A DNA stretch of 64,000 nucleotides, taken from assembly GCA_963682005.1 (NCBI GenBank), contig OY820914.1, forward strand, positions 4,964,979-5,028,978. The letters are read 5' to 3'. Numbering within the stretch: the first letter of the stretch is position 1; each line of letters opens with the position of its first letter. The notes beneath the pieces were generated by a model. That model saw only the letters and a program-made list of their open reading frames with translations, did no database searches and had not been told where the DNA came from. The stretch is from Bacteroidales bacterium. Its GTDB lineage: Bacteria; Bacteroidota; Bacteroidia; Bacteroidales; FEN-979. The position numbers and the translations under genes were made by a program. Below, piece after piece: positions 7,588 to 36,920 of this stretch.

Positions 7588-8074
7588 AGGGGCAATATGG
7601 GATTATCTCGAGACCTCCGGAGTACTTGAAAATGGCACAGATGAAGAGATAAAAGCGGCAAAAAAGGCATACAGAAAAGGATACTATCTAAGCTATAAAA
7701 GAAACCAACGTGCCAACAAGCCAGAGTTTATTATCAATTTTTCATCAGAGAATGGGGAGTATAGCAAGGTAAAGATGGCCGCAAAACATCATAAGATGAC
7801 CGTGACGGCCTTTATTCGATCATCAGTACTGGCATACCTGCAACAACGATTTCTCGTCCCTAATGCATTCCAAGTAGCCCATTTAGAGGAAACCCTCTCT
7901 CAATGTTTAAATGAAATACAAAAACTCGTCGGAGCTAAAGAAAAGTACTATTGGTCAAGAGAAGAAAAGTTTGAAGCAATTGAAAAAAGGATTGAAAAAC
8001 TTGAATATGACATAGATCAAGTATTTCGAAACCCTCCATTACTCCATCATGATAATCAAAATCAAATCCTTTAA
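7565..8074 (+). CDS. relaxosome accessory protein (RHH / MobA-MobC-like)
   Basis: Start taken at MKRTRKHKG. Contains a MTVTAFIRSSVLAYL ribbon-helix-helix-like segment. Overlaps the T4CP and relaxase genes. Confidence 0.55.
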   Translation: MKRTRKHKGAIWDYLETSGVLENGTDEEIKAAKKAYRKGYYLSYKRNQRANKPEFIINFSSENGEYSKVKMAAKHHKMTVTAFIRSSVLAYLQQRFLVPNAFQVAHLEETLSQCLNEIQKLVGAKEKYYWSREEKFEAIEKRIEKLEYDIDQVFRNPPLLHHDNQNQIL

Positions 8075-12518: not shown

Positions 12519-12538
12519 AAAACTAACTTTAGAATAGA

Positions 12539-15400: not shown

Positions 15401-16288
15401 ATGAAAAAGCCAGCTTCTGAACCTAAATCAAAAGCTCAAAATCTAAGCTTTAACGTTTTGAATATTCGTCTTCATTCAAACTCAAGAACGGGCCCCAATG
15501 CTTATTTTGAAATTTTTGAAAAAATTGCTGATTCAAGAACAGTTGTGCAAGTTTCGATTGATAGATTTATAATCTTAAGGACAAAGTTTGTCACAGAAAT
15601 TTCAGGACAAAAGATTATTTATGGTAAAATTGCCGGATTCACAAAAATTTCAGAAACCAATTGGCTAAATATTAATAATTTAGAGGTGGAATCAGTCGTA
15701 ATTCCCGCTGATCATTTTCCTAATATTCGTGAAACAGACTATATATTCATTCCGGCTGCACATAGAATTGCTATTGTTAAATCTCCCCAATTCGGACTCT
15801 ACAATGCAATTAAATTCTTGAACGAATCATTACTAAAAGTAATTGGTAGTGATGAACAAATAGACGTTATTATTGAGCAAAGTTCTGATATTTTCAAGGA
15901 AATTATGGAGGCTCCAATTATCAGGAGTCTTGACATTGAAATATCCTATAGTAATGCTGATATTAAACATGGTGAATATTATAAATGGCTTGATGATGAA
16001 TTAAGGGAAGCCGAAGTCGGAAATATTAAGCTCTCAATCCGGCCAGATCAAAATAATGAAATAAAAATTGATAACAGCCAACTTATCAAGGGCGCATTAA
16101 GCGTTGCGCAAAGTAATGGTTCTGTGTCAGCTACTATTATTACACCTGAGAGAAAGAGAAAAAAAATAATTACAAAGTTTCACCCTGAGATATTTCGGAG
16201 AAAGATAGATCATCCCGATGAAAAAAATCCAAGTATTTTTGCAATGATAATGGAACGGTTTAGAAATAAGTCACATGAAGGAAACTGA
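15401..16288 (+). CDS. hypothetical soluble protein (295 aa), first gene of an unassigned two-gene cassette
   Basis: ORF; no catalytic motif recognised. N-terminal FNVLNIRLHSNS..YFEIFEKI pattern only vaguely reminiscent of a DUF family. Confidence 0.6.
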   Translation: MKKPASEPKSKAQNLSFNVLNIRLHSNSRTGPNAYFEIFEKIADSRTVVQVSIDRFIILRTKFVTEISGQKIIYGKIAGFTKISETNWLNINNLEVESVVIPADHFPNIRETDYIFIPAAHRIAIVKSPQFGLYNAIKFLNESLLKVIGSDEQIDVIIEQSSDIFKEIMEAPIIRSLDIEISYSNADIKHGEYYKWLDDELREAEVGNIKLSIRPDQNNEIKIDNSQLIKGALSVAQSNGSVSATIITPERKRKKIITKFHPEIFRRKIDHPDEKNPSIFAMIMERFRNKSHEGN

Positions 16289-16922
16289 CCCTGTAAAAGC
16301 TAGACATAAAAAGGGCATTATTGGAATCATCCAGTCATATGGATTAAGCAATATTATATGGAGCTTCCCCTCAATTACTAGCTTATTGCTCTCGATTTTG
16401 GTTGTGGGTTTTCTATATTTTAATCAACAGTATAATAGTCATGATATATTAATAAAATTGTCAGACTTATCACTTTTAATATATCCAAGTCTGCTGGGTT
16501 TCAGTTTAGGTGGCTATGCTTTAATTATTGGATTTGGTAATACTTCCTTACTAAAATCAATGACTCGAACCAAAACAGATAAAGATTTCACAATCTTTCA
16601 AAGGATGAACGGGATATTTGCTTTCGGACTACTATTACAAGTGCTCGAACTAATATTCGCCTTTATTATTAAATTTACGAACATTCTCGAAGGATCCAAC
16701 AGAATTTCTTTTTTCCTCACACATCCCAATATTAGCCAGATATTAAATTTAGGTGGCAACTTTCTGCTTTTATGGTGGGCTTGTTGGAGTCTAATTATGA
16801 TCCCTTTCATTGTGTCAAATGTTTTCTTATTCGGACAAATGCACCATCTATACTTGACGAAACAAAGAATGATAGAGGACAGACAAAAGGAGGCTGAGAA
16901 ACAAAAAGAGCCGAAGGCCTAG
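16275..16922 (+). CDS. 4-5 TM membrane protein (215 aa), second gene of the cassette
   Basis: 14-nt overlap with the upstream ORF; hydrophobic segments SLLLSILVVGFLYF, LGFSLGGYALIIGFG, IFAFGLLLQVLELIFAFII, LLLWWACWSLIMIPFIVSNVFLF. Confidence 0.6.
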   Translation: MKETDPVKARHKKGIIGIIQSYGLSNIIWSFPSITSLLLSILVVGFLYFNQQYNSHDILIKLSDLSLLIYPSLLGFSLGGYALIIGFGNTSLLKSMTRTKTDKDFTIFQRMNGIFAFGLLLQVLELIFAFIIKFTNILEGSNRISFFLTHPNISQILNLGGNFLLLWWACWSLIMIPFIVSNVFLFGQMHHLYLTKQRMIEDRQKEAEKQKEPKA

Positions 16923-17939: not shown

Positions 17940-18428
17940 CTAAAGTAACCCTTCGTCAGCAAAAGTAAAATAAGCACCGCTTGATGCGATGATTAAATGA
18001 TCGAGAACTTTTATATCCAAAAGACTCCCAGCTTCTTTCATTCTCTTTGTCAATGTTATATCCGATTCACTAGGTTGAATATTCTGTGAGGGATGATTAT
18101 GACAAAGTATCAAATTACTTGCATTTGTCTGAAGCGCAAGCATAAAAACGATTTTTACATCGACAACGGTTCCACTTGTACCTCCTGAACTTAGTCTAAA
18201 CCAGCCCAGGATGTTGTTAGCCCTATTGAGAAGGAGCAAATAAAACTCTTCCTTAAGCTCAATGGTGTTTATATCAAAAAGGGGATAGAGAGCATTAAAT
18301 GCATCTCTGGAATTCAAAATCTTCGTTTTGTTGCTCGATTTTGTTTTATAACTCACAAAAATTTCGGCAAGCCCGGGACTTTTTTCACTTGTGCTTGCCT
18401 CAATGACATTTTTCATATTCCTGTTCAT
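17940..18428 (-). CDS. radC: RadC-like JAB/MPN domain protein
   Basis: JAMM motif HNHPSQNIQPSESD; start taken at MNRNMKN (the upstream ORF extension has no ATG). Confidence 0.8.
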   Translation of the reverse strand: MNRNMKNVIEASTSEKSPGLAEIFVSYKTKSSNKTKILNSRDAFNALYPLFDINTIELKEEFYLLLLNRANNILGWFRLSSGGTSGTVVDVKIVFMLALQTNASNLILCHNHPSQNIQPSESDITLTKRMKEAGSLLDIKVLDHLIIASSGAYFTFADEGLL

Positions 18429-18557
18429 ACTTTCTTTTTTAAAATGATTACTTTTTTCTATTCGGTTTTCAAAAACCAGTTCTGTCGAGGAGTATAGCGA
18501 CTGATAATTAAAAATCAAGATTGACAAAAAAACATGGAAATGTGGAATAAAATCAGA

Positions 18558-18849: not shown

Positions 18850-19728
18850 ATGAAAGAAAAAATAAAAAAGTATTTAGAGTGGAAGGGGACTTATGCCCCA
18901 CGTGCCAGTGAAAATTATAAGATCTGGTTGGATAGATTTATTGAAATATGCGGTGACAAGCCCATACAAAAATATCAGATCGGGGACTACGTGAAATATC
19001 AGAGTTGGATAGAATCTCATTTTAGCTCATATTGCGTGCAATATTCGACTGTCATTATCAAAAACTTCTTCAAATTCTACCGTGATCAGAATATTAAATG
19101 TATGTCGCCATCGTTTATAAAAATTCCTCGTGCTCACAGGAATTCACACCGGGCTATTAATGAGGAAGAGTATAGAAAAACAATATCAGGAATACCAAGT
19201 AATAACTTTCGCTCATTGCGGGACCTTTTAATAATCCGTTTTCTTTGGGATACCGGTGTGCGTGTCTCGGAACTTTGCGATCTAAACATCTCTCAGATAA
19301 ATGAGAACAGTAGCTCTTGTGCTATCTATACTAAAAAGAACGGAAACCCGCGTATTATTGTTTGGTCCGAAGAAACACACAGGTATCTGATAAAATACCT
19401 TTCCATTCGCCTTGAATTGGACAAGGTACATCATTCCTCCGCTCTTTTTCCCGGCTTAGGTATAGATCATTGTTGGAAAGGAAGGATAACATCCCGAAGT
19501 GTACAGAGAATTATAAAAATAAATGTCAGTAACGCAGGCATAAAAGAAAAAATCACCCCTCACAGTTTTCGTCATGGATGGGCACATATGCGAAGGGACC
19601 AAAACGCACCCCTGGCCTTCATTCAGAGGGGACTAGGGCACGTCAGCCCAACATCGACCTTTATTTATGAGCAGTATAACGATAATGAATTTGTAAAAAA
19701 TGCCAATGTCTATTTTAGCCCAGCTTAG
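18850..19728 (+). CDS. small tyrosine recombinase (XerC/D-like, 292 aa)
   Basis: DTGVRVSEL (Arg), HSFRHGWA (HxxR), LGHVSPTSTFIY (His/Tyr). Confidence 0.85.
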   Translation: MKEKIKKYLEWKGTYAPRASENYKIWLDRFIEICGDKPIQKYQIGDYVKYQSWIESHFSSYCVQYSTVIIKNFFKFYRDQNIKCMSPSFIKIPRAHRNSHRAINEEEYRKTISGIPSNNFRSLRDLLIIRFLWDTGVRVSELCDLNISQINENSSSCAIYTKKNGNPRIIVWSEETHRYLIKYLSIRLELDKVHHSSALFPGLGIDHCWKGRITSRSVQRIIKINVSNAGIKEKITPHSFRHGWAHMRRDQNAPLAFIQRGLGHVSPTSTFIYEQYNDNEFVKNANVYFSPA

Positions 19729-20908: not shown

Positions 20909-21277
20909 ATGTTTTCCCTTGGCGCTGCCCGATATTACCTGTACCGGGAACCAACCGATATCCGCAGGAGTTTTGACGGTCTGTGCGGTCTGGTCACAGA
21001 ACGGTTGGGTCAGAATCCCATGAGCGGGGATGTGTTCATCTTCATCAACAAGCCACGTAACCGGATGAAATTGCTCAAATGGGAACCGGGAGGGTTCGTG
21101 CTGTTCTATAAGCGACTTGAACGAGGCACCTTTGAAATTCCCAGTACATCTTTTCAAGGGCTTTCCCATCAGATCGGCTATGGGGAACTGACCATGATGG
21201 TCACTGGTATATCAATGAAATATACAAAAAAAAGAAGGCGTTTTTTGTCACAAAATGATGTTGATAAATATCGCTGA
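20909..21277 (+). CDS. tnpB: IS66 accessory protein TnpB (orf2)
   Basis: YLYREPTDIRRSFDGLCGLV..DVFIFINKPRNRMKLLKWE matches the IS66 Orf2 signature. Confidence 0.85.
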   Translation: MFSLGAARYYLYREPTDIRRSFDGLCGLVTERLGQNPMSGDVFIFINKPRNRMKLLKWEPGGFVLFYKRLERGTFEIPSTSFQGLSHQIGYGELTMMVTGISMKYTKKRRRFLSQNDVDKYR

Positions 21278-21318
21278 AATAGTGATTTAGCAAGAGTTTT
21301 TCATGATAAATTTGAATC

Positions 21319-22779
21319 ATGGAAAGCACAGAAATGGTCACCATCAGTAAAGCAGATTTTGAGGCTCTCAAATCAGAAAATGCCTGGCTCAAACATCAGC
21401 TTTCCGAACTGAAACGTCTGATCTACGGAGCCAAAAGTGAGCGTTTCATTGCCGTCAATCCGGATCAGGCTACCTTGTTCGATCTCCCAGCAGAACAACC
21501 ATCAGAAACGCCCACAGAAGAAATCACCTATACACGCAACAAACCACAACAGGAGAAAAAGCAGCCACTTCGTCTGGAACTGCCTGCTCACCTGGAACGT
21601 CGGGAAGAAATAATCGAGCCGGAAAACCTTCCTGCCAATGCAAAGAAGATTGGTGAAACTGTTACCGAAATTTTGGAATATGAACCGGCCAGCGCTTATG
21701 TTCGTCGCATTGTCCGTCGCAAGTACATTGTGGAGCAGACCGATGAAGAGACCCGCATCGTCATTGCACCGTTACCTACCTTGCCAATACCCAAAGGCAA
21801 TGCCGGAGCCAGCATGATCGCCCATCTTCTGGTGAGCAAATTTGTCGATCATCTTCCGTTCTACCGCCAGGTCCAGATGTTCAAACGCCAGAGGCTCGAA
21901 ATCGCCGAATCGACCATTAACGGTTGGTTCAATGGAGGGTGTGATTTGATAGAGCCGCTATACCAGGCACTGAAGTCAAGAATGTTGGCATCTGATTATC
22001 TCATGGCCGATGAAACCCCGATCCCAGTGCAGACCAAGGACAAGCCCGGGGCCACACACAAAGGTTTTCACTGGGTCTATTACGATCCCGGCAACAAATT
22101 GGTGCTGTTCGATTACCGGAAAACCCGGGGGAAAGAAGGACCCGATGAACTGCTGAAGAACTACGCCGGGTATCTGCAAACCGATGGCTATACTGCCTAC
22201 AACCACCTTGAAAACACAAACAACATCACTCTTCTGGCCTGTATGGCGCATGCCCGGCGCAAGTTCGAGCATGCACAGGAGAATAATCCCACGCTAGCCG
22301 CCCAGGCATTGAAAATGTTCCAGGCCTTGTATGACATTGAACAGGACATCCGGGAAAAAGAACTGGGACCCGACGTCACCCAAATACTGCGTCAGGAAAA
22401 ATCAAAACCTACTCTCGATCGGATGGAAGCCTGGCTTAAGGAACAGATTATTGTCGTACCCCCAAAAAGCGCTATCGGAGTGGCCATTGCATACACGCTC
22501 AATCTCTGGCCTCGGCTGACCCGGTATATCGATGACGGACGCTTCCACATCGACAATAACCTAATCGAAAACAGCATCCGGCCGGTGGCGCTTGGACGCA
22601 AGAACTACCTCTTTGCCGGTTCCCATGAAGCCGCCCAACAAGCAGCTGTGATCTACTCCATCCTGGCTACATGCAAGCTACACCAGGTGGAACCCTTCGC
22701 CTATCTCACCAAAATCTTGTCCATCATCCCCGACTTCCCGGCCAATCAACTGCACACACTTCTGCCAGGGCAAAAATAG
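21319..22779 (+). CDS. tnpC: IS66-family DDE transposase TnpC
   Basis: N-terminal leucine-zipper-like region and YLMADETPIPV, YLQTDGYTAY, NNLIENSIRPVALGRKNYLFAGS motifs. Confidence 0.9.
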   Translation: MESTEMVTISKADFEALKSENAWLKHQLSELKRLIYGAKSERFIAVNPDQATLFDLPAEQPSETPTEEITYTRNKPQQEKKQPLRLELPAHLERREEIIEPENLPANAKKIGETVTEILEYEPASAYVRRIVRRKYIVEQTDEETRIVIAPLPTLPIPKGNAGASMIAHLLVSKFVDHLPFYRQVQMFKRQRLEIAESTINGWFNGGCDLIEPLYQALKSRMLASDYLMADETPIPVQTKDKPGATHKGFHWVYYDPGNKLVLFDYRKTRGKEGPDELLKNYAGYLQTDGYTAYNHLENTNNITLLACMAHARRKFEHAQENNPTLAAQALKMFQALYDIEQDIREKELGPDVTQILRQEKSKPTLDRMEAWLKEQIIVVPPKSAIGVAIAYTLNLWPRLTRYIDDGRFHIDNNLIENSIRPVALGRKNYLFAGSHEAAQQAAVIYSILATCKLHQVEPFAYLTKILSIIPDFPANQLHTLLPGQK

Positions 22780-23874: not shown

Positions 23875-24399
23875 TCATTGCCCTAGTATTTTAGTTCTAT
23901 ACGTACCTTCAAGTATCAGCCTGGCAAGATCATCCTCAACTTTTATGTTTGGGTTTATTCTCAATATCTCTTTCATAATAGCTTGTAGATCTTTAGAATT
24001 GAAGTGACCATAAGGTATAAGATACCTCACAAAAATACCCTTGGGTTCTTTGTAGTCAAATCCAAGATAGTTAGTATATGGAGTTTTCTTTTGTTTAACC
24101 GATACAAAGTCTAATATCTCTCCTGATTTTGCACCATTGAAATAACTAATTATAGTACTATCTTTAAACTCAATACGATCATAAAGAATAGTCCAAACAT
24201 CTAACATTAATTTAACCACCCATAGAACTAAAAGAACTATCCAAAATTCTTGATTCTTTAAAGTAGTCATTATTCTGAAATTATGCATTAGCAGAAGAAG
24301 ACAAATCGACATTACAATTGCCCAGGGCAATGTACTTTTGAATACTATTTTTTTATCTACTCTAAATATTTTATCTGGCAATGTTTTTTGTGTTTTCAT
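23875..24399 (-). CDS. 2-TM membrane protein with cytosolic domain, candidate cognate immunity protein (174 aa)
   Basis: Starts 9 nt after the rhs stop; hydrophobic helices WAIVMSICLLLLM and FWIVLLVLWVVKLML. Confidence 0.55.
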   Translation of the reverse strand: MKTQKTLPDKIFRVDKKIVFKSTLPWAIVMSICLLLLMHNFRIMTTLKNQEFWIVLLVLWVVKLMLDVWTILYDRIEFKDSTIISYFNGAKSGEILDFVSVKQKKTPYTNYLGFDYKEPKGIFVRYLIPYGHFNSKDLQAIMKEILRINPNIKVEDDLARLILEGTYRTKILGQ

Positions 24400-24408
24400 A
24401 TTTAATGT

Positions 24409-27400
24409 TTATTTCTTCTTGTTAGTTCCAGAACTAATAATACTCATTGGTGCTTCTACCGTCCAGCCAATTTTGCTTAATCCATATTGTTGGGCAGCGT
24501 ATGTACCAAGGTTTAATGTACTGCCAGCAAAGCTACCAACCCATGAACCAAATCCCGAACCCAATATTGAACCAGCAACTTTTACTGGATTTACACTATG
24601 ATCCCCAGTAGCTACTTGTGTAGATAAATTAGTTGCACCAGCTATTCCCATAGCGAATTTTATGCTTATATCTGGTCCTGTCATTGCTCCACCAGCATAA
24701 CTAAGACCTACAATTTTAGCATAATCACCAAACGAAGTTTGTTTATTTTGCATTTGATCTTCCAATATCTGACTACCAACATTGAATGTTGTATTTATTG
24801 TTCCTCTAACTACGGCTTGTGAATTAAATAATGTGTTAGCTACTGTACTTGCAACACTGCTCCCTGCAATCATAGCTCCACCTACTGCAGTTGCTCCACC
24901 AACCACTCCAATGGCTGCTCCCGTGGCATATGGGTGATCCATAGCCATCTGCCAACCACCTCCCATATATTGGGCCGCTTGTCCAACTTCTCCTGAAAAA
25001 TTATTCCATGATTGTGTACCAGACAAGTATTCTCCAAACCATTTTCCACTCGGATCACTTAGTATAATCGGATTGTTTCTGGCATAACTATAACTATTTA
25101 ACTGTTGTGGATCATTTAAAAATTTATCTGGATTCCAGAACACCGGATCCTCTGAAATAAACCTCCCAGCCGTGCTTTGATGATAACGGGCGTTTAGATA
25201 GTTTAAGGAAGTGTCTGGGTCATAATGTTGACCGATGTATTGTTTCTGATTCGTGTGGCTCCCAGAGGAGATTCTTTGTGAACCAAAGGGGTAGTAATCG
25301 AGTAATTCTACTTGTCCTCCATTTGAATCTGAAACGACATTGGTTGAACCAAGATGGTCTGGGTGGATATAGTATGGAGTAACGACAGAATTAGCTGTTT
25401 CAATGGTTGACACTAATTGATTACCCGCATATATGTTCTTGGTCTTTTTGGATCCTCCATAGTTGTAATACTGATTTGGATATTCTGTTGTCAGAGTGCC
25501 ATTACTAGATAATACCCTATTACCTTGTTCGTCGTAAAGGTACTCTCGAGTAAATGTTCCGTTAGTGGTTTCAGTCAGTTGATTTTTGTAATTCCAGGTG
25601 TTGGTGAGGGTACCGTCGTCAGTATTGTTACCATTGTGATCGTAGGTGTTTGTGACACTGTTAATTGAAGTGGCAGCGTGGGGGTTAGCGTAGTTGGTGC
25701 CACTGTTTCCTGCGTAAGTATAACTTCCCACTGGACCTGAAGTGATATTTCCAATTGCGTTGTAGGTAAAATTTTGAGTGTAAGGAGTCTGACCAAATGG
25801 CACATCGGTGATAGTGGCAGAAGTCAGACGATTTAGATCGTCATAGGTATAATCGGCTGTCTTGGATCCGCTTGTGCTTGAATCATCCACGATTTCAGTA
25901 ATGTTGCCATCAGCATCATACTCGTATGTGGTCTTTTGAAGACTTGTTGGTACTTGGTTGGTCGTTGATTTGTCAGTTACTCTGTATAAATTATTTGGGT
26001 CGTATGTATTCGTAGTCGTTACTCTATTGGCATAATTTATTTCTGTTGGTTGGTCAGTCGGCGCATAATCAAAATTCGAAATAACATCGGTGAAAGATCC
26101 TCCGCTTTCTTTATATTCTATTTTTTCCAGTAACCCAGCCGAATTGTAAACATAAAGAACTTGAGCATTGTCGGGATAAGTAATTACTAGCATATTACTC
26201 TGGCGATCATGAGTGTATGAAGTGGTGTAAATATTTTTGGTGACAGTTTTTTCCTCACTTGCGACATTCCCATCTGCGTCATATGTGTAATCCGTTTCCA
26301 CTCCACTTAGCATAACCGCGGAACATAGTTTTCCTATACCGTCTGAACATGAATCATAAGTATAGATAATATCTGTGCCAGTTGTTCCTGTAGAATCTTC
26401 AGTTAGTTTTCTGTTTACATCATCATAGGTATAGTCCACCGTATCGCCGTTAGGATTTATGCTTTCCGTCAAATTACCTGAATCATCATAGGTATATGCC
26501 CATGTTCCATAAGTTGCATCATTTTGCGCATGAAGATCTTCAGCCGTTAAACGATGTCCCAAATTATCATAGGTAAAATTCCGGACATTGCCAAGCGCGT
26601 CAGTTGTATTTATTAGATTGCCATTTAGATTCCAAGTGTAGTACGTGGAGTAAGTATAAGAGCCAGTTCTTTCGTCAACTCTCACCAAATTTTTATACGC
26701 ATCGTAGTAATAATTTTTGACTTTTCCACGTGGGTCACTCACGTCAATTTCCCATGGAGTGTAAGAATAAGCGGTAACACCTGACGCGTTGGTCAATGTA
26801 TGAATACGCTGCACGGGATCATAGGCGTATGTCGTATATAATGCTGTGGTTGTAGTTGGAGAAGTCTTGGATGATCCACTCCCTGTATATGGTAAAGATT
26901 CTTTTTGTACCAAACCAAGATTATTGTAAACAGTGTCTTTGACATTAAAGTTGCCAGAAGTTTCTGCCTCTTTTCTCTCTTGAATTAAACGTCCAAGCCC
27001 ATCAAAATATTGATAAGTATTAGCTGTGGTTGAAGAATTAAGATAGTTAACTTTTTGTACAGAGACTGCATTTGAAGTATCTGTATAGACATAAGCAGTT
27101 TTAGCGTCCAAAGTTGAAGGTGATGTTAGATCAGGAATTTTTTCGGTTAGCACTCGTCCAAGCCCATCGTAAGTTGTCTCTTTCGTTAACCCATTTGGAT
27201 CAGTAGTATCTATCACTTTGCCAGTTGAATAGTCATAGGTATATTCTGTGCTATTTGAAAGGGGATCGGTTATTGTGGTTGGGTAAAGGTGATATGTATC
27301 GTAAGAATAGGATGTTGTTTTTCCTCGTTCGTCAGTGGAAGTAATGGGAATACCATAGGTTGTATAGTATGATTTTTGAGTATTAACATTACGTGTCACA

Positions 27401-30400
27401 GAAGCCATTTTTTCAATTTCAGTTGGATTCCCTGCGCCGGTGGTACCAAATGTAAGTTCGTCATAATACGTTCTTGTATCCTGAATTGTTGTCGCGTTTT
27501 GGTCTTGGATAATATCATCGGAGAGTAAACCGATAACATTTTCACCGTCAGAGGCGTAAGAGAAAGACTCCGTTAACATATCATTCCCTGTGTCGGCAAA
27601 TGATCCATCACTACTTCCCGTTACTTCTCCCCAATCAATTTTTTGAGTTAAATTGCCATTAGTATCGTCATAGGTATATTCTTGTGCCGTGTCTTTGTGG
27701 TTATTAGTGCCATCGTAGGTAAGTGTAGTGGTGCGAGTAAGTTTTACAAAATCATGTCCTGTACCAATGTTGTATGAATCCCATTTATTTATTATGTCAG
27801 CATACAAATTATCAGCACCGTCATATTGTTCGACACGATATGGTTTTCCAATTTTTGCGTACGAATCGCTGTATTCACCTAGCGAAGAATTTGTACCATC
27901 TCCTTGATGAAAATATGTTTTTTTTACGTTTCCAACATCATCTGTCACAGAAGTTGAAGCAAAACCTGCAAACTTGCGAGTAAGATAATCATCAAAATAA
28001 TATTTACCTCCTTGGTAAGAATAATTATTAGTTTCCGAATTTCCTAAACCATCATTATTGGTGATCTGAGAAACAACATCTATGGACATAGGTAAATTTG
28101 GATTTAGGAGGTTACTCGATCCATCTTTGAATAACTGTGTTGCTTTGTAAGTTATTTGAGTATTACCACCTTCGGGATATGTAATTTGAGTCAAGTTATT
28201 CACTCTGGAATTTGTCGTATTATTCAAATACACGTAATGTAATCCATCACTGCCTGCTCTAACCAGGTCCACTAAATTATCTCCATTAACATCAATTAAC
28301 TGGAGGCCATGATTTTGATAGTTACTTTGGATAAAAAACTCTTTGTTTCCAGATGAATCTACCTTGTCCGGCATCGTCCAAGTGGAAGAAACATCTGTCC
28401 ATCCAGAACCATTGTTTAAGTAAATTTTAGGAGCATTGATGGAACATGGGACAGCAGTAGGATAAGCAAAATCATTGGCACACACGAAATCAGGTAATCC
28501 ATCGCCATTGATATCTGTCATTCTTACGCCATAATCTCTGTTTGGGGGACCAACCACAAATTGCATCGGAACAGATGCCGACCAAGTAGAATCATAAGTC
28601 CAACCAGAACCGTTGTTTAAATACACATAATGCAATTCGTCATTGCCAGCTCGTACAAGATCAGCTAAATTATCTCCATTGACATCGATTAACTGGAGAC
28701 CATAAACTTGATAATTGCTGATTACAAAATATTCTTTGTTCCCAGATGAATCTATCTTGTCCGGCATCGTCCAAGTGGAAGAAACATCTGTCCATCCAGA
28801 ACCATTGTTTAAGTAAATTTTGGGATCGTTAATATGACATTGAGAAGGAGCACCACCAGTTGGAATATTATTCGCACAAACGAAATCAGGTAGTCCATCC
28901 CCGTTGATGTCTGCCGTTCTAACTCCCTGATCTCTGAAATTGCTACCTGTAAGCAGGAATTGCATTGGAACAGCCGAAGACCATGTGGAATTATAAGTCC
29001 AACCAGAACCGTTGTTTAAATACACATAATGCAATCCATCATTACCGGCTCGTACGAGGTCAGTCAAATTATCTCCATTGACATCGATTAATTCAAGACC
29101 TTGGTTTTGATAGGAACTATTTATAAAATATTCCTTATTCCCCGATGAATCAACTTTGTCCGGCATCGTCCAGGTAGAAGAAACATCCGTCCAGCCAGAG
29201 CCAGTATTTAAATAAATTTTGGGAGCATTGATGGAACATGGGACAGCAGCAGGATAAGCAAAATTATTGGCACATATGAAATCAGGCAGTCCATCTCCGT
29301 TGATGTCTGCCGTTCTTGTACCATAATCCTTGGTGGGAATACCAAGTAAAAACTGCAACGGAACAGCCAAGGACCAGGTGGAGTCATAAGTCCAGTTTGC
29401 CGTTGACGTTTTATAATCAAAATCTGTAGCGGGAAGAACAGTAACATTGTTTGACCCATCCTGACCTGATTCAATTATCGTCTCCAAAAGAGAACCGGTG
29501 CCATTGTCGGCTGTGGTATAAGTAAAATCATATTTTTCTGCCCAGACACTATTTATTTTGGTATTGATTTCACTAATTACATAATTTGATTTAACCGAAA
29601 ACCCAGTAGAATAGGAAATTGGACCGCCTGTTCGACTAGCGGTCGTAAAATTAACTTCAAAAATTCCATCAGTAGTTCCATTCCCGGTATAAACTATTTG
29701 TAATGGATATATCTGACCTGCGTCTTTGTAGTAGGTATAAGAAATATAATTATCGTTAGTATCTCTCACCTCTTCCAGCATCCATTTATAAATATGAGAC
29801 GAATTATTTGGATCATCTTGCCTGGCTTGGGCATTGGCTCCAAAAATATATTGAGTGCCGTCTTTACTTGTAACTACCCAACCACTTCCTGATTTTTCGT
29901 ATTTAATAAAATCACCCAATTCATCCTTGGCTCTGTAATTTGTGGAATCAAGGGCAATTAATTCTCCTGAAAGAGATGAAGAATAATAGTCTTCGGAGAA
30001 AAGCTCTTGGCTTCCTGTTTTATTAATTCTCTCTATACTCGGAATATCTATTGACCAACCAGATCCGATAACTGAATCCAAAACAGAATTGGAACTATTG
30101 TACATTAAAGTTACATCGGGAGTCATTTTATTTCTTCCTGGTGGCACGTTAATGGAATATTTATAAATCATGGCACCAGTAGAATTATCAACATCAGTGG
30201 TAAGACGAGCTTTTTTAGTAGTATTACTATTTAAAATTGGATTTTCTTCAAAATCTTCAGTCAAGGTTTCTAGGTTTTGTTCAATTTGAGGTCCTGATTG
30301 AATATTTGTTTCACCATTATTAACAACTTGGTTGCCTTGATCTATGGTTTCTTCTTCCGCAAATACTTTGACTATAGGATAAATTATAATAAAAAAAGCC

Positions 30401-30471
30401 ACTAAAATAGATAGTGACTGAACCAATGCGCGAACCAAAAAACTTTTTGGTGGCAAAATATTGTTTTTCAT
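24409..30471 (-). CDS. SpvB/TcdB-N + FG-GAP x3 + RHS/YD-repeat polymorphic toxin with glycine-zipper C-terminal domain (2020 aa)
   Basis: N-terminal signal-anchor. GSGWSIDIPSIER (SpvB-like). DINGDGLPDF/VNGDNLxDLV FG-GAP units. Many YD repeats (YTYDxxGN). RHS core end YARNNPIILSDPSGKW, then a 209-aa Gly/Ala-rich tail (24412-25038). Confidence 0.9.
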   Translation of the reverse strand: MKNNILPPKSFLVRALVQSLSILVAFFIIIYPIVKVFAEEETIDQGNQVVNNGETNIQSGPQIEQNLETLTEDFEENPILNSNTTKKARLTTDVDNSTGAMIYKYSINVPPGRNKMTPDVTLMYNSSNSVLDSVIGSGWSIDIPSIERINKTGSQELFSEDYYSSSLSGELIALDSTNYRAKDELGDFIKYEKSGSGWVVTSKDGTQYIFGANAQARQDDPNNSSHIYKWMLEEVRDTNDNYISYTYYKDAGQIYPLQIVYTGNGTTDGIFEVNFTTASRTGGPISYSTGFSVKSNYVISEINTKINSVWAEKYDFTYTTADNGTGSLLETIIESGQDGSNNVTVLPATDFDYKTSTANWTYDSTWSLAVPLQFLLGIPTKDYGTRTADINGDGLPDFICANNFAYPAAVPCSINAPKIYLNTGSGWTDVSSTWTMPDKVDSSGNKEYFINSSYQNQGLELIDVNGDNLTDLVRAGNDGLHYVYLNNGSGWTYNSTWSSAVPMQFLLTGSNFRDQGVRTADINGDGLPDFVCANNIPTGGAPSQCHINDPKIYLNNGSGWTDVSSTWTMPDKIDSSGNKEYFVISNYQVYGLQLIDVNGDNLADLVRAGNDELHYVYLNNGSGWTYDSTWSASVPMQFVVGPPNRDYGVRMTDINGDGLPDFVCANDFAYPTAVPCSINAPKIYLNNGSGWTDVSSTWTMPDKVDSSGNKEFFIQSNYQNHGLQLIDVNGDNLVDLVRAGSDGLHYVYLNNTTNSRVNNLTQITYPEGGNTQITYKATQLFKDGSSNLLNPNLPMSIDVVSQITNNDGLGNSETNNYSYQGGKYYFDDYLTRKFAGFASTSVTDDVGNVKKTYFHQGDGTNSSLGEYSDSYAKIGKPYRVEQYDGADNLYADIINKWDSYNIGTGHDFVKLTRTTTLTYDGTNNHKDTAQEYTYDDTNGNLTQKIDWGEVTGSSDGSFADTGNDMLTESFSYASDGENVIGLLSDDIIQDQNATTIQDTRTYYDELTFGTTGAGNPTEIEKMASVTRNVNTQKSYYTTYGIPITSTDERGKTTSYSYDTYHLYPTTITDPLSNSTEYTYDYSTGKVIDTTDPNGLTKETTYDGLGRVLTEKIPDLTSPSTLDAKTAYVYTDTSNAVSVQKVNYLNSSTTANTYQYFDGLGRLIQERKEAETSGNFNVKDTVYNNLGLVQKESLPYTGSGSSKTSPTTTTALYTTYAYDPVQRIHTLTNASGVTAYSYTPWEIDVSDPRGKVKNYYYDAYKNLVRVDERTGSYTYSTYYTWNLNGNLINTTDALGNVRNFTYDNLGHRLTAEDLHAQNDATYGTWAYTYDDSGNLTESINPNGDTVDYTYDDVNRKLTEDSTGTTGTDIIYTYDSCSDGIGKLCSAVMLSGVETDYTYDADGNVASEEKTVTKNIYTTSYTHDRQSNMLVITYPDNAQVLYVYNSAGLLEKIEYKESGGSFTDVISNFDYAPTDQPTEINYANRVTTTNTYDPNNLYRVTDKSTTNQVPTSLQKTTYEYDADGNITEIVDDSSTSGSKTADYTYDDLNRLTSATITDVPFGQTPYTQNFTYNAIGNITSGPVGSYTYAGNSGTNYANPHAATSINSVTNTYDHNGNNTDDGTLTNTWNYKNQLTETTNGTFTREYLYDEQGNRVLSSNGTLTTEYPNQYYNYGGSKKTKNIYAGNQLVSTIETANSVVTPYYIHPDHLGSTNVVSDSNGGQVELLDYYPFGSQRISSGSHTNQKQYIGQHYDPDTSLNYLNARYHQSTAGRFISEDPVFWNPDKFLNDPQQLNSYSYARNNPIILSDPSGKWFGEYLSGTQSWNNFSGEVGQAAQYMGGGWQMAMDHPYATGAAIGVVGGATAVGGAMIAGSSVASTVANTLFNSQAVVRGTINTTFNVGSQILEDQMQNKQTSFGDYAKIVGLSYAGGAMTGPDISIKFAMGIAGATNLSTQVATGDHSVNPVKVAGSILGSGFGSWVGSFAGSTLNLGTYAAQQYGLSKIGWTVEAPMSIISSGTNKKK

Positions 30472-30979: not shown

Positions 30980-31234
30980 ATGGAAAAAAATCTAAAAAAG
31001 GATGTGACTATAATTGTCAATGGCGAACAAAAAGTGGTCCCAAAAGATGAGATAACCTATGAAGAGGTCGCAACTTTAGCGTTCCCTGATTTCGCAAATC
31101 ATCCAGAGCGAACATACGCCATTACTTATGAACGAGGACAAGGAAATAAACCTCAGGGAATTTTGTCACCTGGGGATAGTGTTAAAGTTAAAGATGGGAT
31201 GATATTTCATGTTAGAATCACTGGCCAGTCATAA
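30980..31234 (+). CDS. ubiquitin-like beta-grasp protein ('multiubiquitin'-type single domain, 84 aa)
   Basis: VTIIVNGEQKVV..ITYEEVATLAF...YAITYERGQGNKPQGILSPGDSVKVKDGMIFHVRITGQS matches the remembered family pattern. Confidence 0.65.
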   Translation: MEKNLKKDVTIIVNGEQKVVPKDEITYEEVATLAFPDFANHPERTYAITYERGQGNKPQGILSPGDSVKVKDGMIFHVRITGQS

Positions 31235-32375
31235 TCCTGACATTGAAAGATTACGGCAAAAAGGATATGCAATATCTTTTGATAGTAACTATTTAGTTAT
31301 CCGTGATATCTCATACTTAGATAATAATAAGAATCTACAACAAGGTGCTATTGTTTCTAAGGTTGTCTTTATTGATAACGAGCATGTCAAACAAGAAGAT
31401 CATCAAATTTTCTTTTGTGGCTCTCATCCCCACCAAGCGGACGGAAATCCAATAAAAAATTTTGGTGGAGGTGAGGTTAACTTGCAATTATCATCACCCG
31501 ATCTAGTTGTTCAAAGATCATTTTCTAATAAACCTGCTGCGGGGTACGAGGATTTCTTTGATAAAATTGAGACATATGTCACAATAATTTCCGGACCGGC
31601 TATGCAACTCTTTGGAGAAGAGGCAAACCCTTTTACCTTCCGCTCAATTCTAGGAACAACTGAGTCAGTTTTTAAATGTCATGACACATTGACTTCTAGA
31701 GCAGAGATAGGTGATTTAGCGCTAAAATTCAAAGACGATGTAATTGCCATAATCGGACTTGGGGGAACAGGTTCATATCTCCTCGATTTTTTAGTTAAAA
31801 CACCTGTTAAAGAAATTCGGGCATTTGATTGCGATAAGTACCATGTACATAATGCTTTTCGTAGTCCCGGAAAACTGGAGATATCAGAACTAGGTAAACC
31901 TAAGACTAACGTCTATCAATCCAGGTATGAAAATTTCAGAAATGGCCTCAGTTTTTATAATAAATATATTCAGTCTGATTCTATGTCGGATTTAGAAGGG
32001 GTAACATTTGCTTTTGTATGTGTAGATAAGGGAACTGCACGCAAAGAGATTTTTGACCTTCTTTTTAAAATGAATATTTCTTTCATTGATGTAGGTATGG
32101 GTCTTGACAGAATGCAAGGAATTCTTTCGGGAATTTTGCGTACTACATATTTCTCAAATGAAACAGCCCAAGAACTAATCAAGAAAAACTATGTCCCGCT
32201 AACTGATATTAATGATGAGGAATATCGTAATAATATTCAGATTTCTGAACTTAATGCTTTAAATGCTTGTATAGCAGTAATCAAGTATAAGAAAATTCGT
32301 GGTTTCTATGTAGAAGATGATTCTTTCCACCAAATGCTTTTTACCATTGATACGCTATCTCACCTTGGAGAATGA
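31209..32375 (+). CDS. ThiF/E1-like adenylyltransferase with an extra ~170-aa N-terminal domain (388 aa)
   Basis: Rossmann IAIIGLGGTGSYLLDFL, FDCDKYHVHNAFRSPG, FVCVDKGTARKEI. 26-nt overlap with the Ubl gene. Confidence 0.75.
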   Translation: MLESLASHNPDIERLRQKGYAISFDSNYLVIRDISYLDNNKNLQQGAIVSKVVFIDNEHVKQEDHQIFFCGSHPHQADGNPIKNFGGGEVNLQLSSPDLVVQRSFSNKPAAGYEDFFDKIETYVTIISGPAMQLFGEEANPFTFRSILGTTESVFKCHDTLTSRAEIGDLALKFKDDVIAIIGLGGTGSYLLDFLVKTPVKEIRAFDCDKYHVHNAFRSPGKLEISELGKPKTNVYQSRYENFRNGLSFYNKYIQSDSMSDLEGVTFAFVCVDKGTARKEIFDLLFKMNISFIDVGMGLDRMQGILSGILRTTYFSNETAQELIKKNYVPLTDINDEEYRNNIQISELNALNACIAVIKYKKIRGFYVEDDSFHQMLFTIDTLSHLGE

Positions 32376-32809
32376 TAAAAAAAATTAAATTAATAAAAGT
32401 TCAATATATCCCAGGTCAACTCGAAGAAGGAACTTTATATCTTTCAGAAGAATATAAGGTTGCAGTTCATTTGTGTCCGTGTGGTTGTGGTAACAAAGTT
32501 GTAACTCCTCTTGGTCCAACTGATTGGTCATTCAAAGAGGTTGATGGTCAACCTTCACTTTATCCTTCAATTGGAAACTGGCAAATACCATGTAGATCCC
32601 ATTATTTTATCATTAACGGGATTATTGAATGGTCATATCAATGGACTAAAGAAGAAATTGAAACAGGAAGAAAAATCGAAGACTTGCAGAGAACACAGTA
32701 CTACAATGATCTGCCTCATTTCCAAAAAAAACAACACTTAATTATTAGAATTTTTAACCGATTAATGAGAATTTTTAAGAACCGAACTAACCAGAGAAAA
32801 AAAGGATGA
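32372..32809 (+). CDS. Cys-rich small protein (DUF6527-like), third gene of the Ubl operon (145 aa)
   Basis: HLCPCGCGNKV ... IPCRSHY Cys/His cluster; 4-nt overlap with the E1 gene. Confidence 0.55.
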   Translation: MIKKIKLIKVQYIPGQLEEGTLYLSEEYKVAVHLCPCGCGNKVVTPLGPTDWSFKEVDGQPSLYPSIGNWQIPCRSHYFIINGIIEWSYQWTKEEIETGRKIEDLQRTQYYNDLPHFQKKQHLIIRIFNRLMRIFKNRTNQRKKG

Positions 32810-32823
32810 TAATATTAATATTT

Positions 32824-34413
32824 TTATTTTATGTTGAACTCTTCATTAAAACTCTTCTTCCTGAGTTCAGGATTTAATTTCGCAGCTTTATTATAGTACT
32901 TTTTCGCAATTTTTCTATCTTTTAATCTTTTCTCATAAAAATACGAATACGCCCAATAAACATACCATGTATCTGGTTCAATCTCCTGGGCTTTATCATA
33001 ATGTTGCTTTGCTTTTTCGAAATCGTTTTCTGCACCTAACATGGCAGCATAATTAATATTAAATTTCGCACTATTTGGATTGATTTCCAATGCTTTCTCA
33101 TAATGTATTTTTGCTTCTTTAAAATTTTTCAACTTTGTCCATAGAAAAGACGCATAACACTCATGAAACTCTGGATTGTTAGGACTCATTTCCACGGCTT
33201 TCTCATAGTGCATCTTTGCTTCTTCATTTTTTTCTAAATCTCTTTCTAATAATTTTCCAAAATAATAATGTATTATATCTCTTGGGTTCAGATTAATCGT
33301 TTTTAAGTAGTACGTTTCAGCATCTCTATACTTTTTAAGTTCTTCAAGAACAAGGGCTGCATAAAAATATCCCTTATAATAATCAGGCCTTACCTCAATA
33401 CACCTCTGATAATATGATAATGCAGTAACATAATCTTTTCGTTGAAACAATATTAAATTTCCATATTTAAGGTTTCCCCAGAAATTATTTGGGTTTAGTT
33501 CTAACCCGGTTCTGTATAGTTCTTCACTTTTATTGAAATCTTTTAGATTGTAATAGCAGTCCCCTGCTAGTATATGAATATTTTCATTGAAATATACTTC
33601 ATTTGCTATTTTATTTATATTCTCGATTGCTTTTTTATCATCACCTTCCAAATAGAACTTATTTGCTAAAAACCAAAAAATTACATTTTCGATTTCTAAC
33701 TTGACCTCTCCTTCCGAAAGTTCTACAAGTCTTAAAATTTCTAATTTTTTTGTTTTTCCAGGTGACTTAATAAATTCTTTTGATTCATTGTTAGGGTCGA
33801 GATAATGAAAATATACTTGGTGGGATAGGTCTCTAGGTTTAGAATCAATACCCCAAATAACCATATTAGTGTTTGGAATTTGCTTCCCAATATCCTCAGC
33901 CATTTTAGAAGTGTTGTCAAAAGTACTGTAGATTAAGTATTCTATTTCTAATCCATTCTTAACTAAATCAACATTCTCAAGCAATCTTCTTTTCAATTCA
34001 AAACCTGCAAGAGTTTCAACTGGATATTCTTCAGGGTTATAAAATGGTAGAATAAGAATACTATATTTTTTAGGATCAAATAATATCTTATTGAAAGATT
34101 GTTCTTTAATACTCTCAGGCTGCTTATCTCTTACAACAATCAGTTTATTAAGATTGACTGTTTTTTTGACATCTTCGATGTATTGTAGGATTATTTTAAT
34201 GGTTCTGTCATGATGACCAACTATTTTCGGATCGAAAAAATTCAACAAAGTACCTTGTGCGAGATATTTCTTTGTTTTTAGATAAATTTCATCTCTAAGG
34301 GCGTCAAAGGATTTGCTATTCTTGCTTAGGGTGGTTATTAATTCTTTTCTCGTACTGTCCATATAAGCCTGTCGAACTTGCTCACGTAAAGATTCTAAAG
34401 AAATTCCTTCCAT
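32824..34413 (-). CDS. TPR-repeat protein with unassigned ~250-aa N-terminal domain (529 aa)
   Basis: C-terminal half is repeated A..Y...L..NP.. TPR units; stop lies 15 nt from the stop of the Ubl operon (convergent). Confidence 0.7.
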   Translation of the reverse strand: MEGISLESLREQVRQAYMDSTRKELITTLSKNSKSFDALRDEIYLKTKKYLAQGTLLNFFDPKIVGHHDRTIKIILQYIEDVKKTVNLNKLIVVRDKQPESIKEQSFNKILFDPKKYSILILPFYNPEEYPVETLAGFELKRRLLENVDLVKNGLEIEYLIYSTFDNTSKMAEDIGKQIPNTNMVIWGIDSKPRDLSHQVYFHYLDPNNESKEFIKSPGKTKKLEILRLVELSEGEVKLEIENVIFWFLANKFYLEGDDKKAIENINKIANEVYFNENIHILAGDCYYNLKDFNKSEELYRTGLELNPNNFWGNLKYGNLILFQRKDYVTALSYYQRCIEVRPDYYKGYFYAALVLEELKKYRDAETYYLKTINLNPRDIIHYYFGKLLERDLEKNEEAKMHYEKAVEMSPNNPEFHECYASFLWTKLKNFKEAKIHYEKALEINPNSAKFNINYAAMLGAENDFEKAKQHYDKAQEIEPDTWYVYWAYSYFYEKRLKDRKIAKKYYNKAAKLNPELRKKSFNEEFNIK

Positions 34414-35265: not shown

Positions 35266-36699
35266 ATGATACCCACGATGGAATACAAACCCTTGATAAT
35301 CCCAGAATCAAAAAGATGGAAGGGGTTGAAGGTTTTCTGTTATGAATGCGGAACAAGCGTATCAGATATTTGTAAAAGTTCGGGTAACCCGATATCACAA
35401 TGCAAGCATGGAGATCAACATGTATTCAAAGTTGTTGTCCACGTGCCAGGAACTAAAAATCAGAGAAGAACAAAAAAATTAGAAACACGAGATGTAAACG
35501 AAGCGATAGCCCAGGCAATCGAATTTGAGAAAGAAGCCAAGAGCGAAGCCTACGAGAGTCCAAGGAAAAAGATTCAAAAGAAAGAAATAGAAAAGGAAGA
35601 CCTGGATGAAAGCAAGCCGTATCTCTTAATCCATGCGCTTGCCAGATATATAGGCTGGCTAAACAACGAAGGTGTACCGGCACATTTGATAAAGGTAAGG
35701 AGTAGGGAACATATAAAGGATGTAGAACGTGCCCTAAAAAGTCTCATTGAGTGCTTAAAAGATAATGACTACCATCTTCCGACTTTTACGATGGAAGACA
35801 TTAATAATAATATGGTGGGAAAGGTTTTCCTTTTTTTAGAAAAGAGAAGGTTTGCTTCCAGAACATTTAATAAGTACCTCAGTTATTACACCTCTTTCCT
35901 AAGCTGGTATGCCGAGGAATATGATTTCCCCATCCGAAATTATTTTGAAAAAGTCAAAAGGAAGAACTTGAATCCAAAGCCTCAAGCGATAACACTTCCA
36001 GAGTATCAAGCTCTATTGGAAATCATCAACCCCGAGAATGGCATTAAGGAATATAAAAATGGAGTAAAGGAGAAAAGGAATTTCTATCGACCCTGGCTTG
36101 TCGATGGTTTCCGTCTTGCTCTTGAAACAGGAAGACGAAGGGAAGAGATCATAAACTTAAAATGGAACTACATCGAGGAAAGTAATGGCATACCATATAT
36201 AAAGGTAGAGGACTTCAAAGTTAATCGGATTCAAAACCGGCTTTCTGAAGACGAAAAGAAGTTCAACTATATTCCTATCACAGAATCCTTAGCGAAGCTC
36301 CTTAAAGATTTAGGTCAGGACCAATACGCCAACACGGACAATTTTATCTTGGCTCCCGAGATTTCAATAAGTCGTAAAAGGGTGATGGCAGATACTTTGA
36401 GCCGGGGCTTCTCCCATTATTATAACCAGCTTAAAACGGGAAGGAGGCTCACTTTCAAATGTTTAAGAAAAACCTATATAACGAATCTTGAGATTTTCAT
36501 GGGTAGAGGACATACGAGGGATGTTACCGGACATACCAATGATCAAGTGATAGAAAGAAGCTACTTAGACAAGCGAGAGATAGCAAAAGCAGCTCATGGA
36601 TTTCAGGTATTCCCCGATGAACCCCAGCGTAACCAAGAATTAAAGGAGATCAGAGATGAAAGAGAAAAGAACAATGAACCAAAAAGCCTAGAGGTATAA
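35266..36699 (+). CDS. int: tyrosine integrase of the element (477 aa)
   Basis: ETGRRREEI, KCLRKTYIT, TGHTNDQVIERSY catalytic-type motifs; N-terminal Cys/His cluster CYECG..C..C.H; ends 137 nt from tRNA-Leu. Confidence 0.85.
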   Translation: MIPTMEYKPLIIPESKRWKGLKVFCYECGTSVSDICKSSGNPISQCKHGDQHVFKVVVHVPGTKNQRRTKKLETRDVNEAIAQAIEFEKEAKSEAYESPRKKIQKKEIEKEDLDESKPYLLIHALARYIGWLNNEGVPAHLIKVRSREHIKDVERALKSLIECLKDNDYHLPTFTMEDINNNMVGKVFLFLEKRRFASRTFNKYLSYYTSFLSWYAEEYDFPIRNYFEKVKRKNLNPKPQAITLPEYQALLEIINPENGIKEYKNGVKEKRNFYRPWLVDGFRLALETGRRREEIINLKWNYIEESNGIPYIKVEDFKVNRIQNRLSEDEKKFNYIPITESLAKLLKDLGQDQYANTDNFILAPEISISRKRVMADTLSRGFSHYYNQLKTGRRLTFKCLRKTYITNLEIFMGRGHTRDVTGHTNDQVIERSYLDKREIAKAAHGFQVFPDEPQRNQELKEIRDEREKNNEPKSLEV

Positions 36700-36792: not shown

Positions 36793-36833
36793 AAAAAAAT
36801 GCCGAAACGCTTATTTATCTAGCATTTCGGCAT
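36793..36833 (-). terminator. element-encoded terminator for the reconstituted tRNA-Leu
   Basis: ATGCCGAAA (36799-36807) / TTTCGGCAT (36825-36833) followed on the minus strand by T7. Confidence 0.6.
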
Positions 36834-36835
36834 CG

Positions 36836-36920
36836 TACCCGGGGCGGGAATCGAACCCGCACGCCCTCGTCGGGCACAGGATTTTAAGTCCTGCGTGTCT
36901 ACCAGTTCCACCACCCGGGC
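36836..36920 (-). tRNA. tRNA-Leu(UAA)
   Basis: Reverse complement GCCCGGGTGGTGGAACTGGTAGACACGCAGGACTTAAAATCCTGTGCCCGACGAGGGCGTGCGGGTTCGATTCCCGCCCCGGGTA. Long variable arm, anticodon loop CTTAAAA, close to E. coli leuZ. CCA not encoded. Confidence 0.95.

Follow-up and report, generated by a model that had tools for sequence, protein, structure and literature searches.

Among the bacterial cassettes that pair a ubiquitin-like protein (Ubl) with E1- and E2-like enzymes, the closest to the locus considered here are the Bub (bacterial ubiquitination-like) operons. These were previously listed as 6E or DUF6527 operons, and were renamed by Ye, Gong, Chambers and Corbett (10.1101/2024.11.21.623953; Nat Struct Mol Biol 2026, 33:71, as cited in PMC13373217); a companion paper on Bub was published by Gong et al. 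(10.1101/2024.11.21.623966; Structure 2025). The locus itself occupies positions 30980-32809 of a 64,000-nucleotide stretch of contig OY820914.1 from a Bacteroidales bacterium (GCA_963682005.1), which is referred to below as the window. It consists of three overlapping genes that a first-pass annotation, made from the sequence alone, had put forward as an uncharacterised conflict system.

The chemistry of Bub is by now well described. Both the E1 and the E2 lack catalytic cysteines; the E1 crossover loop instead carries the Ubl as a Ubl~Tyr oxyester, and the E2 carries it as a Ubl~Ser oxyester (10.1101/2024.11.21.623953). According to the same preprint, the E. coli homologue makes BubA-BubA conjugates in an ATP-dependent manner and is active in vitro without any protease, while the substitutions R219A, Y342F and S106A in E. 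coli BubBD each abolish conjugation. The DUF6527 component acts as a serine protease by means of a Ser-His dyad and holds zinc in a structural C4 site; in the Citrobacter protein these are S92/H102 and C57/C59/C61/C99. This Citrobacter BubE cuts a BubA-GFP fusion and strips conjugates in cells, and both activities are abolished by S92A and by H102A. With regard to their genomic setting, Bub operons are found within mobile elements located at tRNA genes, and regulators (CapW, CapH+CapP or CapK+CapS) accompany only a fraction of them (10.1101/2024.11.21.623953).

Judged by sequence comparison with these systems, the three genes of the window very probably make up an intact Type II Bub operon (formerly 6E.2/DUF6527), which travels as cargo of a ∼34-kb integrative mobilizable island at a tRNA-Leu gene. 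The first gene, bubA (30980-31234, + strand), encodes an 84-aa Ubl1-class ubiquitin-like protein with a single beta-grasp domain. The second, bubBD (31209-32375, +; 388 aa), joins an E2-like part (31209-31703, +; residues 1-165, Pfam DUF6791) to an E1 part (31704-32375, +), the ThiF-like C-terminal adenylation domain. The third, bubE (32372-32809, +; 145 aa), encodes a DUF6527 protein that is predicted to be a serine protease. Type II Bub is defined by a free Ubl, an E2-E1 fusion, a DUF6527 protein and the lack of a JAB peptidase, and both the Pfam domains and the gene order place the operon in this type; no JAB/JAMM domain was found in it by the Pfam scan. All three open reading frames (ORFs) are full length. 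The overlap between bubA and bubBD (31209-31234, +) spans 26 nt, with the bubBD start codon placed within the last bubA codons (translational coupling), and that between bubBD and bubE spans 4 nt; the first-pass annotation had given both overlaps exactly, and every motif that it quoted is present. It is in the interpretation that the two accounts part. The operon is a further example of an already described Bub system, not an uncharacterised one, and the statement that no mechanism is known gives way to the published conjugation via oxyesters in Type II Bub (10.1101/2024.11.21.623953).

The arrangement of the genes is strongly conserved. A check of neighbourhood conservation, proposed together with the first-pass annotation, covered 80 related genome loci, of which 76 have the order BubA-BubBD-BubE; they span many phyla, including Bacteroidota, Pseudomonadota, Chloroflexota, Acidobacteriota and Actinomycetota. 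The 26-nt overlap between bubA and bubBD recurs, again across phyla, in 61 of 77 related loci, where the start codon is ATG (49), GTG (11) or TTG (1) and arises at an x-Val codon junction in the tail of BubA. E. coli ES2 has the same overlap in its RefSeq annotation, and the operon of the window is present in identical form in independent metagenome assemblies. As for its wider distribution, BubBD homologues were found on 130 PLSDB plasmids, 97 of which are mobilizable or conjugative, and in none of 50,697 phage records. A matching Type II Bub operon is carried by just 3 of 5,426 complete E. coli genomes; in E. coli ES2 (locus L084, NZ_CM184352.1 4056730-4062097) it adjoins a tyrosine integrase, a tRNA-Leu gene and IS1.

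The assignment of BubA is straightforward. Pfam Multi_ubiq PF14452 matches residues 9-79 (E 2.8e-15), and the third domain (Ubl3) of the E. coli ZDHYS365 protein, PDB 9CD2, is matched with E 2.3e-9 in an alignment that reaches within one residue of both C-termini and keeps them in register; the beta-grasp, multiubiquitin nature suspected from the beginning is thereby borne out. The protein shares 40% identity with BubA of E. coli ES2. Its genome-encoded C-terminus reads ...HVRITGQS, i.e., T81-G82-Q83-S84-stop. This tail had been singled out as a departure from the usual GG: it is indeed there, but it is the norm of the family rather than an aberration. Among 77 relatives, 32 end in TDKS and 30 in TGQS, and 75 have Ser as their last residue, so that T-[G/D]-[Q/K]-S-stop can be described, as derived here from the relatives, as the conserved C-terminus of Type II BubA. 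Because Ser84 lies directly before the stop codon, BubA would be made in its mature form and would not need JAB processing. The Ser tail implies, in other words, that the mature C-terminus is already encoded in the genome, which fits the lack of a JAB peptidase for processing. Neither the terminal Ser nor the 26-nt overlap is mentioned in the main text of the preprint (10.1101/2024.11.21.623953).

For BubBD, Pfam DUF6791 covers residues 10-160 (E 1.1e-43) and Pfam ThiF PF00899 residues 173-297 (E 6.8e-11), while the 388-aa protein clears the cut-off of NCBIfam PRK06153.1-2 (419) with a score of 610 bits. Homologues are abundant, with more than 5,780 in a large protein collection and 1,542 cluster representatives. 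The conservation of single residues was read from an alignment of 133 full-length cluster representatives, 33-56% identical to the query, and the counts are expressed out of 134. In the E1 domain, the Arg finger R218 (31860-31862, +), the crossover-loop Tyr Y339 (32223-32225, +) and K232 are found in 134/134, and the Gly-rich loop (G183/G185/G186/G188), D207 and D273 are 97-100% conserved. The ThiF/E1 module of the first-pass annotation is therefore confirmed, and the stretches GLGGTGSYLLDFL, FDCDK, VCVDKGTAR and FFCGSHPHQADG are all contained in the protein.

In the E2-like domain, the predicted nucleophile is S106 (31524-31526, +; 133/134), with K108 (31530-31532, +; 120/134) and H65 (31401-31403, +; 134/134) as its partners; Y123 is kept in 134/134. 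None of the five cysteines of BubBD is conserved among the 134 homologues, C70 included. The proposal that this extra N-terminal domain is E2-like survives in part: the domain belongs to DUF6791, and FFCGSHPH is a conserved portion of it (H65, G71, P74, G79), but the HPN-like stretch does not supply the nucleophile, a role predicted for the conserved S106 rather than for a cysteine or the histidines of HPH. The residues S106, R219 and Y342 of E. coli BubBD, together with its Lys and His, are matched here by S106, R218, Y339, K108 and H65.

Structural comparisons lead in the same direction for the E1. A family profile of BubBD run against PDB sequences returned Citrobacter BubCD as its best match (E 8.8e-12). 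The full-length AlphaFold2 model has a predicted local distance difference test score (pLDDT) of 90.3, with Y339 in a loop of lower pLDDT (residues 331-340). In a Foldseek search with this model, the top seven matches fell in five Citrobacter BubCD entries (9EA4/9EA5/9EA8/9EAE/9EAV; best E 3.8e-14), which rank above ThiF, UBA5 and MccB. The E2-like domain, modelled separately (pLDDT 88.8), shows a layout of helix, beta-meander and long helix. Foldseek against the PDB placed the E2 Atg10 at the top with a non-significant E of 0.16, with UEV and Ubc8 at E values close to 1; Citrobacter BubB was not among the matches of this search, and the profile of the E2-like domain gave noise only against PDB chain sequences (E >= 0.34).

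The 145-aa protein, which carries the motif CPCGCG...PCRSH, is matched by Pfam DUF6527 PF20137 (E 3.7e-24), as the first-pass annotation had anticipated for a Cys-rich protein without a JAB domain; newer precomputed Pfam tables label PF20137 "BubE". Its identity to BubE of E. coli ES2 is 39%, and RefSeq lists that protein as "ubiquitination-like system serine protease family protein". C35, C37, C39, C74, S66 and H77 are invariant in 80/80 relatives, and in alignment A4 as well. The four cysteines are the predicted zinc ligands (C4 site), and S66 (32567-32569, +) and H77 (32600-32602, +) the predicted catalytic dyad. These correspond to the six residues of the Citrobacter protease; the Cys-rich protein is itself the predicted peptidase, BubE, and the reading of the operon as "peptidase-less" was wrong. 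The tail of the protein (residues ∼120-145) is basic and amphipathic; its end, ...HLIIRIFNRLMRIFKNR, aligns with R-x-W-x-W-L-x-x-L-F tails in relatives and fits the hydrophobic terminal extension described for Bub (10.1101/2024.11.21.623953).

How, then, does the locus compare with the systems that have been described? The nearest is the Type II Bub of E. coli ZDHYS365, which has the same gene order and domains, a Ser-terminated Ubl and no JAB. Its catalytic set is also the same (Ser, Lys and His in the E2; the Arg finger and the crossover Tyr in the E1; the C4 site and the Ser/His pair in BubE), as are the 26-nt overlap and the location on an integrase-bearing island at a tRNA gene. One difference lies in the Ubl: a single beta-grasp domain of 84 aa in the window against three in E. 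coli ZDHYS365, so that the filament formed by domains 1-2 and the Ca2+ module are missing. Others are the modest identity to E. coli ES2 proteins (37-40%), the Bacteroidota host, and the lack of a Cap-type regulator in the CapH/CapP profile search and in the Pfam scan of the adjacent genes. The Type I Bub system (6E.1) of Citrobacter sp. RHBSTW-00271 (BubAB/BubCD/BubE) provides, with its E1, the solved structure closest to BubBD of the window, and shares the oxyester logic (Tyr in the E1, Ser in the E2) and the BubE protease. However, Type I has a Ubl-E2 fusion and a JAB-E1 fusion, whereas the window has a free Ubl, an E2-E1 fusion and no JAB; the Type I Ubl ends in Gly after JAB cleavage, that of the window in a genome-encoded Ser; and the Ser of the E2 is paired with His and Asp in Type I, with Lys and His here.

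The likeness to other families is more distant. Bil (BilABCD) is also a Ubl/E2/E1 cassette found in defence islands, without an E3, but it relies on Cys thioesters, an E1 with IAD-AAD-CYS organization, a separate E2 and a JAB deubiquitinase, none of which occurs in the window. Cap2 of Type II CBASS (cyclic-oligonucleotide-based antiphage signalling system), and of the related Pycsar/MBL 6A systems, is an E2-E1 fusion protein too. Nevertheless, Cap2 has catalytic Cys residues and conjugates a CD-NTase instead of a Ubl, and its partner Cap3 is a JAB peptidase; neither a CD-NTase nor an effector or a JAB turned up in the PADLOC and Pfam scans, and in sequence the E2 part of the window protein does not match Cap2. 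The PADLOC E1-E2 (Cap2) models match BubBD weakly and only at residues ∼152-326, the Rossmann region (best E 1e-7); weak NCBIfam matches are confined to this region too. CBASS was rejected as an identity for the locus, as PADLOC-DB 2023 yields just these weak matches, with no CD-NTase or JAB. Lastly, the pairs ThiF/ThiS and MoeB/MoaD likewise combine a beta-grasp carrier with a ThiF-fold adenylating enzyme, but the carrier of the window ends in TGQS and not in GG, the operon lacks a biosynthetic context, and it has an E2 and a protease in addition; the NCBIfam ThiF/MoeB scores on BubBD are far under the cut-offs.

From the conserved residues, and from the biochemistry of the E. coli and Citrobacter homologues (Ye et al.), a reaction path can be proposed. 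BubA would be synthesised mature, with a reactive Ser84 at its C-terminus. The E1 domain of a BubBD dimer would bind BubA and ATP and adenylate the BubA C-terminus by means of the Gly-rich loop, D207, R218 and D273. Tyr339, on the flexible crossover loop, would attack the adenylate to give a BubA~Tyr oxyester, and BubA would then move on to the fused E2-like domain, where Ser106, with K108 and H65 to activate it, would accept it; no cysteine thioester would arise at any point. The E2 domain would move BubA onto a target lysine. In a last step, for which the protease chemistry of BubE is the guide, the zinc-stabilised BubE (Ser66-His77) would take BubA off its targets and so restrain the pathway, and its amphipathic tail may hold it at the membrane. 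The purpose of this cycle is the weakest part of the proposal: as cargo of a defence-rich mobile island, the operon is inferred to act in stress or in anti-phage/inter-element conflict.

The island is well delimited. Two att-like direct repeats of 63 bp, identical at 62/63 positions, mark its ends at ∼2.8 and ∼36.9 kb and enclose ∼34 kb. The proximal copy (36831-36893), at the near end, overlaps the 3' part of an intact tRNA-Leu(TAA) gene (36835-36920, −; ARAGORN and repeat alignment), which is the integration site; the distal copy (2769-2831), at the far end, is a partial copy of the tRNA-Leu 3' part. A tyrosine integrase gene (35266-36699, +; Phage_integrase E 6.1e-10, Phage_int_SAM_5) adjoins the 3' end of the tRNA. 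The repeats also bracket a type IV secretion system (T4SS) coupling protein (6124-7587) and a MobA-type relaxase (8049-8891), and the description of the element as mobilizable is accordingly upheld; ArdC is encoded next to the relaxase (8906-9889). The guanine-plus-cytosine (GC) content is ∼0.31-0.40 in the island, the segment at 20-23 kb excepted, versus 0.43-0.47 in the mutS flank. That segment holds an IS66-family insertion sequence (IS) element with a TnpB-like Orf2 and a DDE transposase (20909-22779), and the local GC peak of 0.45-0.49 at this point inside a low-GC island suggests a recent insertion.

A three-gene defence cluster lies at 9927-15042 on the − strand. It comprises an 886-aa AAA_13/SMC-like ATPase, the PADLOC candidate PDC-S06 (E 4e-175), whose gene overlaps that of an AlwI-family type II restriction endonuclease (12539-14239, −), and an N6/N4 DNA methyltransferase (14230-15042, −). 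A 295-aa DUF4747 protein, translationally coupled to a 215-aa protein without a family, follows at 15401-16922; DUF4747 is cited as the "CarolAnn" prophage system (PMC13373217), and PADLOC 2023 gave no match for this gene pair. RadC (17940-18527) and a second tyrosine recombinase (18850-19728) are encoded further on. Taken together, the att repeats, integrase, coupling protein, relaxase, ArdC, restriction-modification genes and PDC-S06 agree with the published siting of Bub operons in mobile elements, and the conflict-system surroundings suggested by the first-pass annotation are found as an island with restriction-modification and other defence genes.

Directly upstream of the operon, on the opposite strand, is a gene for a 2,020-aa RHS/YD-repeat toxin (24409-30471, −), which has SpvB, FG-GAP and DUF6443 regions but no assignment for its C-terminal tip; next to it comes a 174-aa ORF without a family (23875-24399, −), a candidate immunity gene. 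Downstream, a gene for a 529-aa protein, unassigned over its ∼250 N-terminal residues and with a TPR array at the C-terminus (32824-34413, −), is convergent with bubE, with 14 nt between the ends of the two genes, and it accompanies the operon in metagenome contigs that carry identical BubBD or MutS proteins. The TPR protein, an upstream 76-aa ORF (no family in Pfam), a 104-aa ORF, the 174-aa ORF and the integrase were all considered as parts of the system and discarded, with zero matches in 83 related loci. To the left of the distal repeat, positions 1-2768 have a similarly low GC (∼0.32), and the ORFs at 1012-1707 and 1722-2618 gave no Pfam or PADLOC matches; another island may have inserted here, in tandem with the first, at this tRNA.

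Several observations weigh against reading the locus as a working Type II Bub operon with a role in conflict. The proteins of the window are just 37-40% identical to their E. coli ES2 homologues, and their conjugation, oxyester chemistry and proteolysis are extrapolated over that distance. The spacing from S66 to C74 in BubE is one residue longer than from S92 to C99 in Citrobacter, so that equating S66 with S92 assumes a one-residue indel. As of mid-2026, the literature contains no Bub operon shown to be phage-protective. Finally, the regulators are missing: jackhmmer profiles found no CapH- or CapP-like ORF in the whole window, and the Pfam scan of the flanking genes, without profiles dedicated to CapW or CapK+CapS, found no WYL (CapW-type), STAS or GHKL-kinase (CapK+CapS-type) domain. 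A CapH/CapP-like pair (a helix-turn-helix protein and an M78 peptidase) occurs in ∼50 of 83 related loci, and both genes are divergent and just upstream of the operon in 29 of the 74 loci with upstream sequence. A promoter/terminator scan of the window gave consensus-level matches only, with a promoter model that is inappropriate for Bacteroidota.

The alternative that best survives accepts the machinery and differs on its use: Bub would serve a general stress response or the mobile element itself, e.g., by modifying proteins of the host or of competing elements, rather than fight phages. This is a possibility to be taken seriously, although the balance tilts away from it. Reports of phage protection are so far lacking, the operon turns up on 130 plasmids and in 0 of 50,697 phage records, and the copy in the window rides a mobilizable island without the DNA-damage-responsive regulators sought in the CapH/CapP search. 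On the other hand, its neighbours on the island are defence genes (type II restriction-modification, PDC-S06, DUF4747, ArdC), many relatives stand behind the CapH+CapP-like pairs that control known immune operons, and the related Bil and CBASS systems are antiviral. A more specific form of the idea is improbable: that a regulator-less Bub operon with a single beta-grasp domain works for the mobilizable island and not against phage, being expressed constitutively or under the control of the element, tagging host or competing-element proteins with the Ser-terminated Ubl, and perhaps using the TPR protein (32824-34413) as substrate or adaptor. The TPR gene, indeed, is not conserved beside Bub in the 83 related loci.

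The remaining alternatives question the identification or the integrity of the operon, and fare worse. Could this be, after all, a novel minimal Ubl/E1 system without a peptidase and of no known mechanism, with the Cys-rich protein serving as an E2/E3-like zinc-ribbon transfer factor? The operon has no JAB/JAMM domain in the Pfam scan, neither the Ubl nor the DUF6527 protein has a model in PADLOC 2023, and a role of BubE in Ubl transfer was first weighed by Ye et al. themselves before they tested it (10.1101/2024.11.21.623953). Yet the protease activity of Citrobacter BubE is lost in S92A and H102A, and the window keeps the Ser/His/C4 set; this very architecture is explicitly described as Type II Bub in that preprint; and the DUF6791 domain, with S106 (133/134), already takes the part of the E2. 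Such a system is therefore very unlikely.

Just as hard to believe is an operon that has lost its function and is carried along, decayed or silent, by an island strewn with IS elements. The lack of an associated CapH/CapP regulator, together with the IS66 element and the second integrase, would fit decay, and a few relatives are visibly broken (e.g., L025, L033-L034). In addition, BubBD of the window departs from the family consensus at S35, where 96% of relatives have Pro, and by single-residue insertions at D98 and G136. Against this, the ORFs are full length with all catalytic and structural invariants intact, the 26-nt and 4-nt coupling overlaps are preserved, and the same operon recurs unchanged in independent metagenome assemblies.

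Least probable is a ThiS/MoaD-type sulfur carrier, a metabolic adenylation or an MccB/PaaA-like peptide modification in place of protein conjugation: the E1 domain does match ThiF, MoeB, TcdA and MccB weakly and the carrier has a non-Gly C-terminus, as in MccA, but the BubCD structures outrank ThiF, MoeB and MccB, the carrier has no GG, Tyr339, Ser106 and a dedicated protease are features of conjugation, the E. coli homologue makes ATP-dependent BubA-BubA conjugates, and no thiamine, molybdopterin, rhodanese or cysteine-desulfurase genes are found nearby in the window or in the gene tables of relatives that were examined. The first-pass annotation had itself named a protein other than beta-grasp, an E1 stripped of its active-site residues and a sulfur-pathway setting as signs that it was mistaken; what was found is a beta-grasp protein, a conserved set of E1 residues and 83 related loci in which sulfur gene sets are unseen.

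Seen as a Type II Bub operon, the locus has a known machinery, and it should no longer be listed among the uncharacterised systems. Its remaining value bears on a question that concerns the whole family: what does Bub modify, and why? The copy in the window does not make this question notably more tractable, but it offers a compact Ubl1-type Type II operon from Bacteroidota, on a cleanly delimited tRNA-Leu mobilizable island. Two features that emerged from the comparison of relatives, the Ser C-terminus of BubA (75/77) and the 26-nt overlap of bubA with bubBD (61/77), may also aid the annotation of these operons and the design of constructs.

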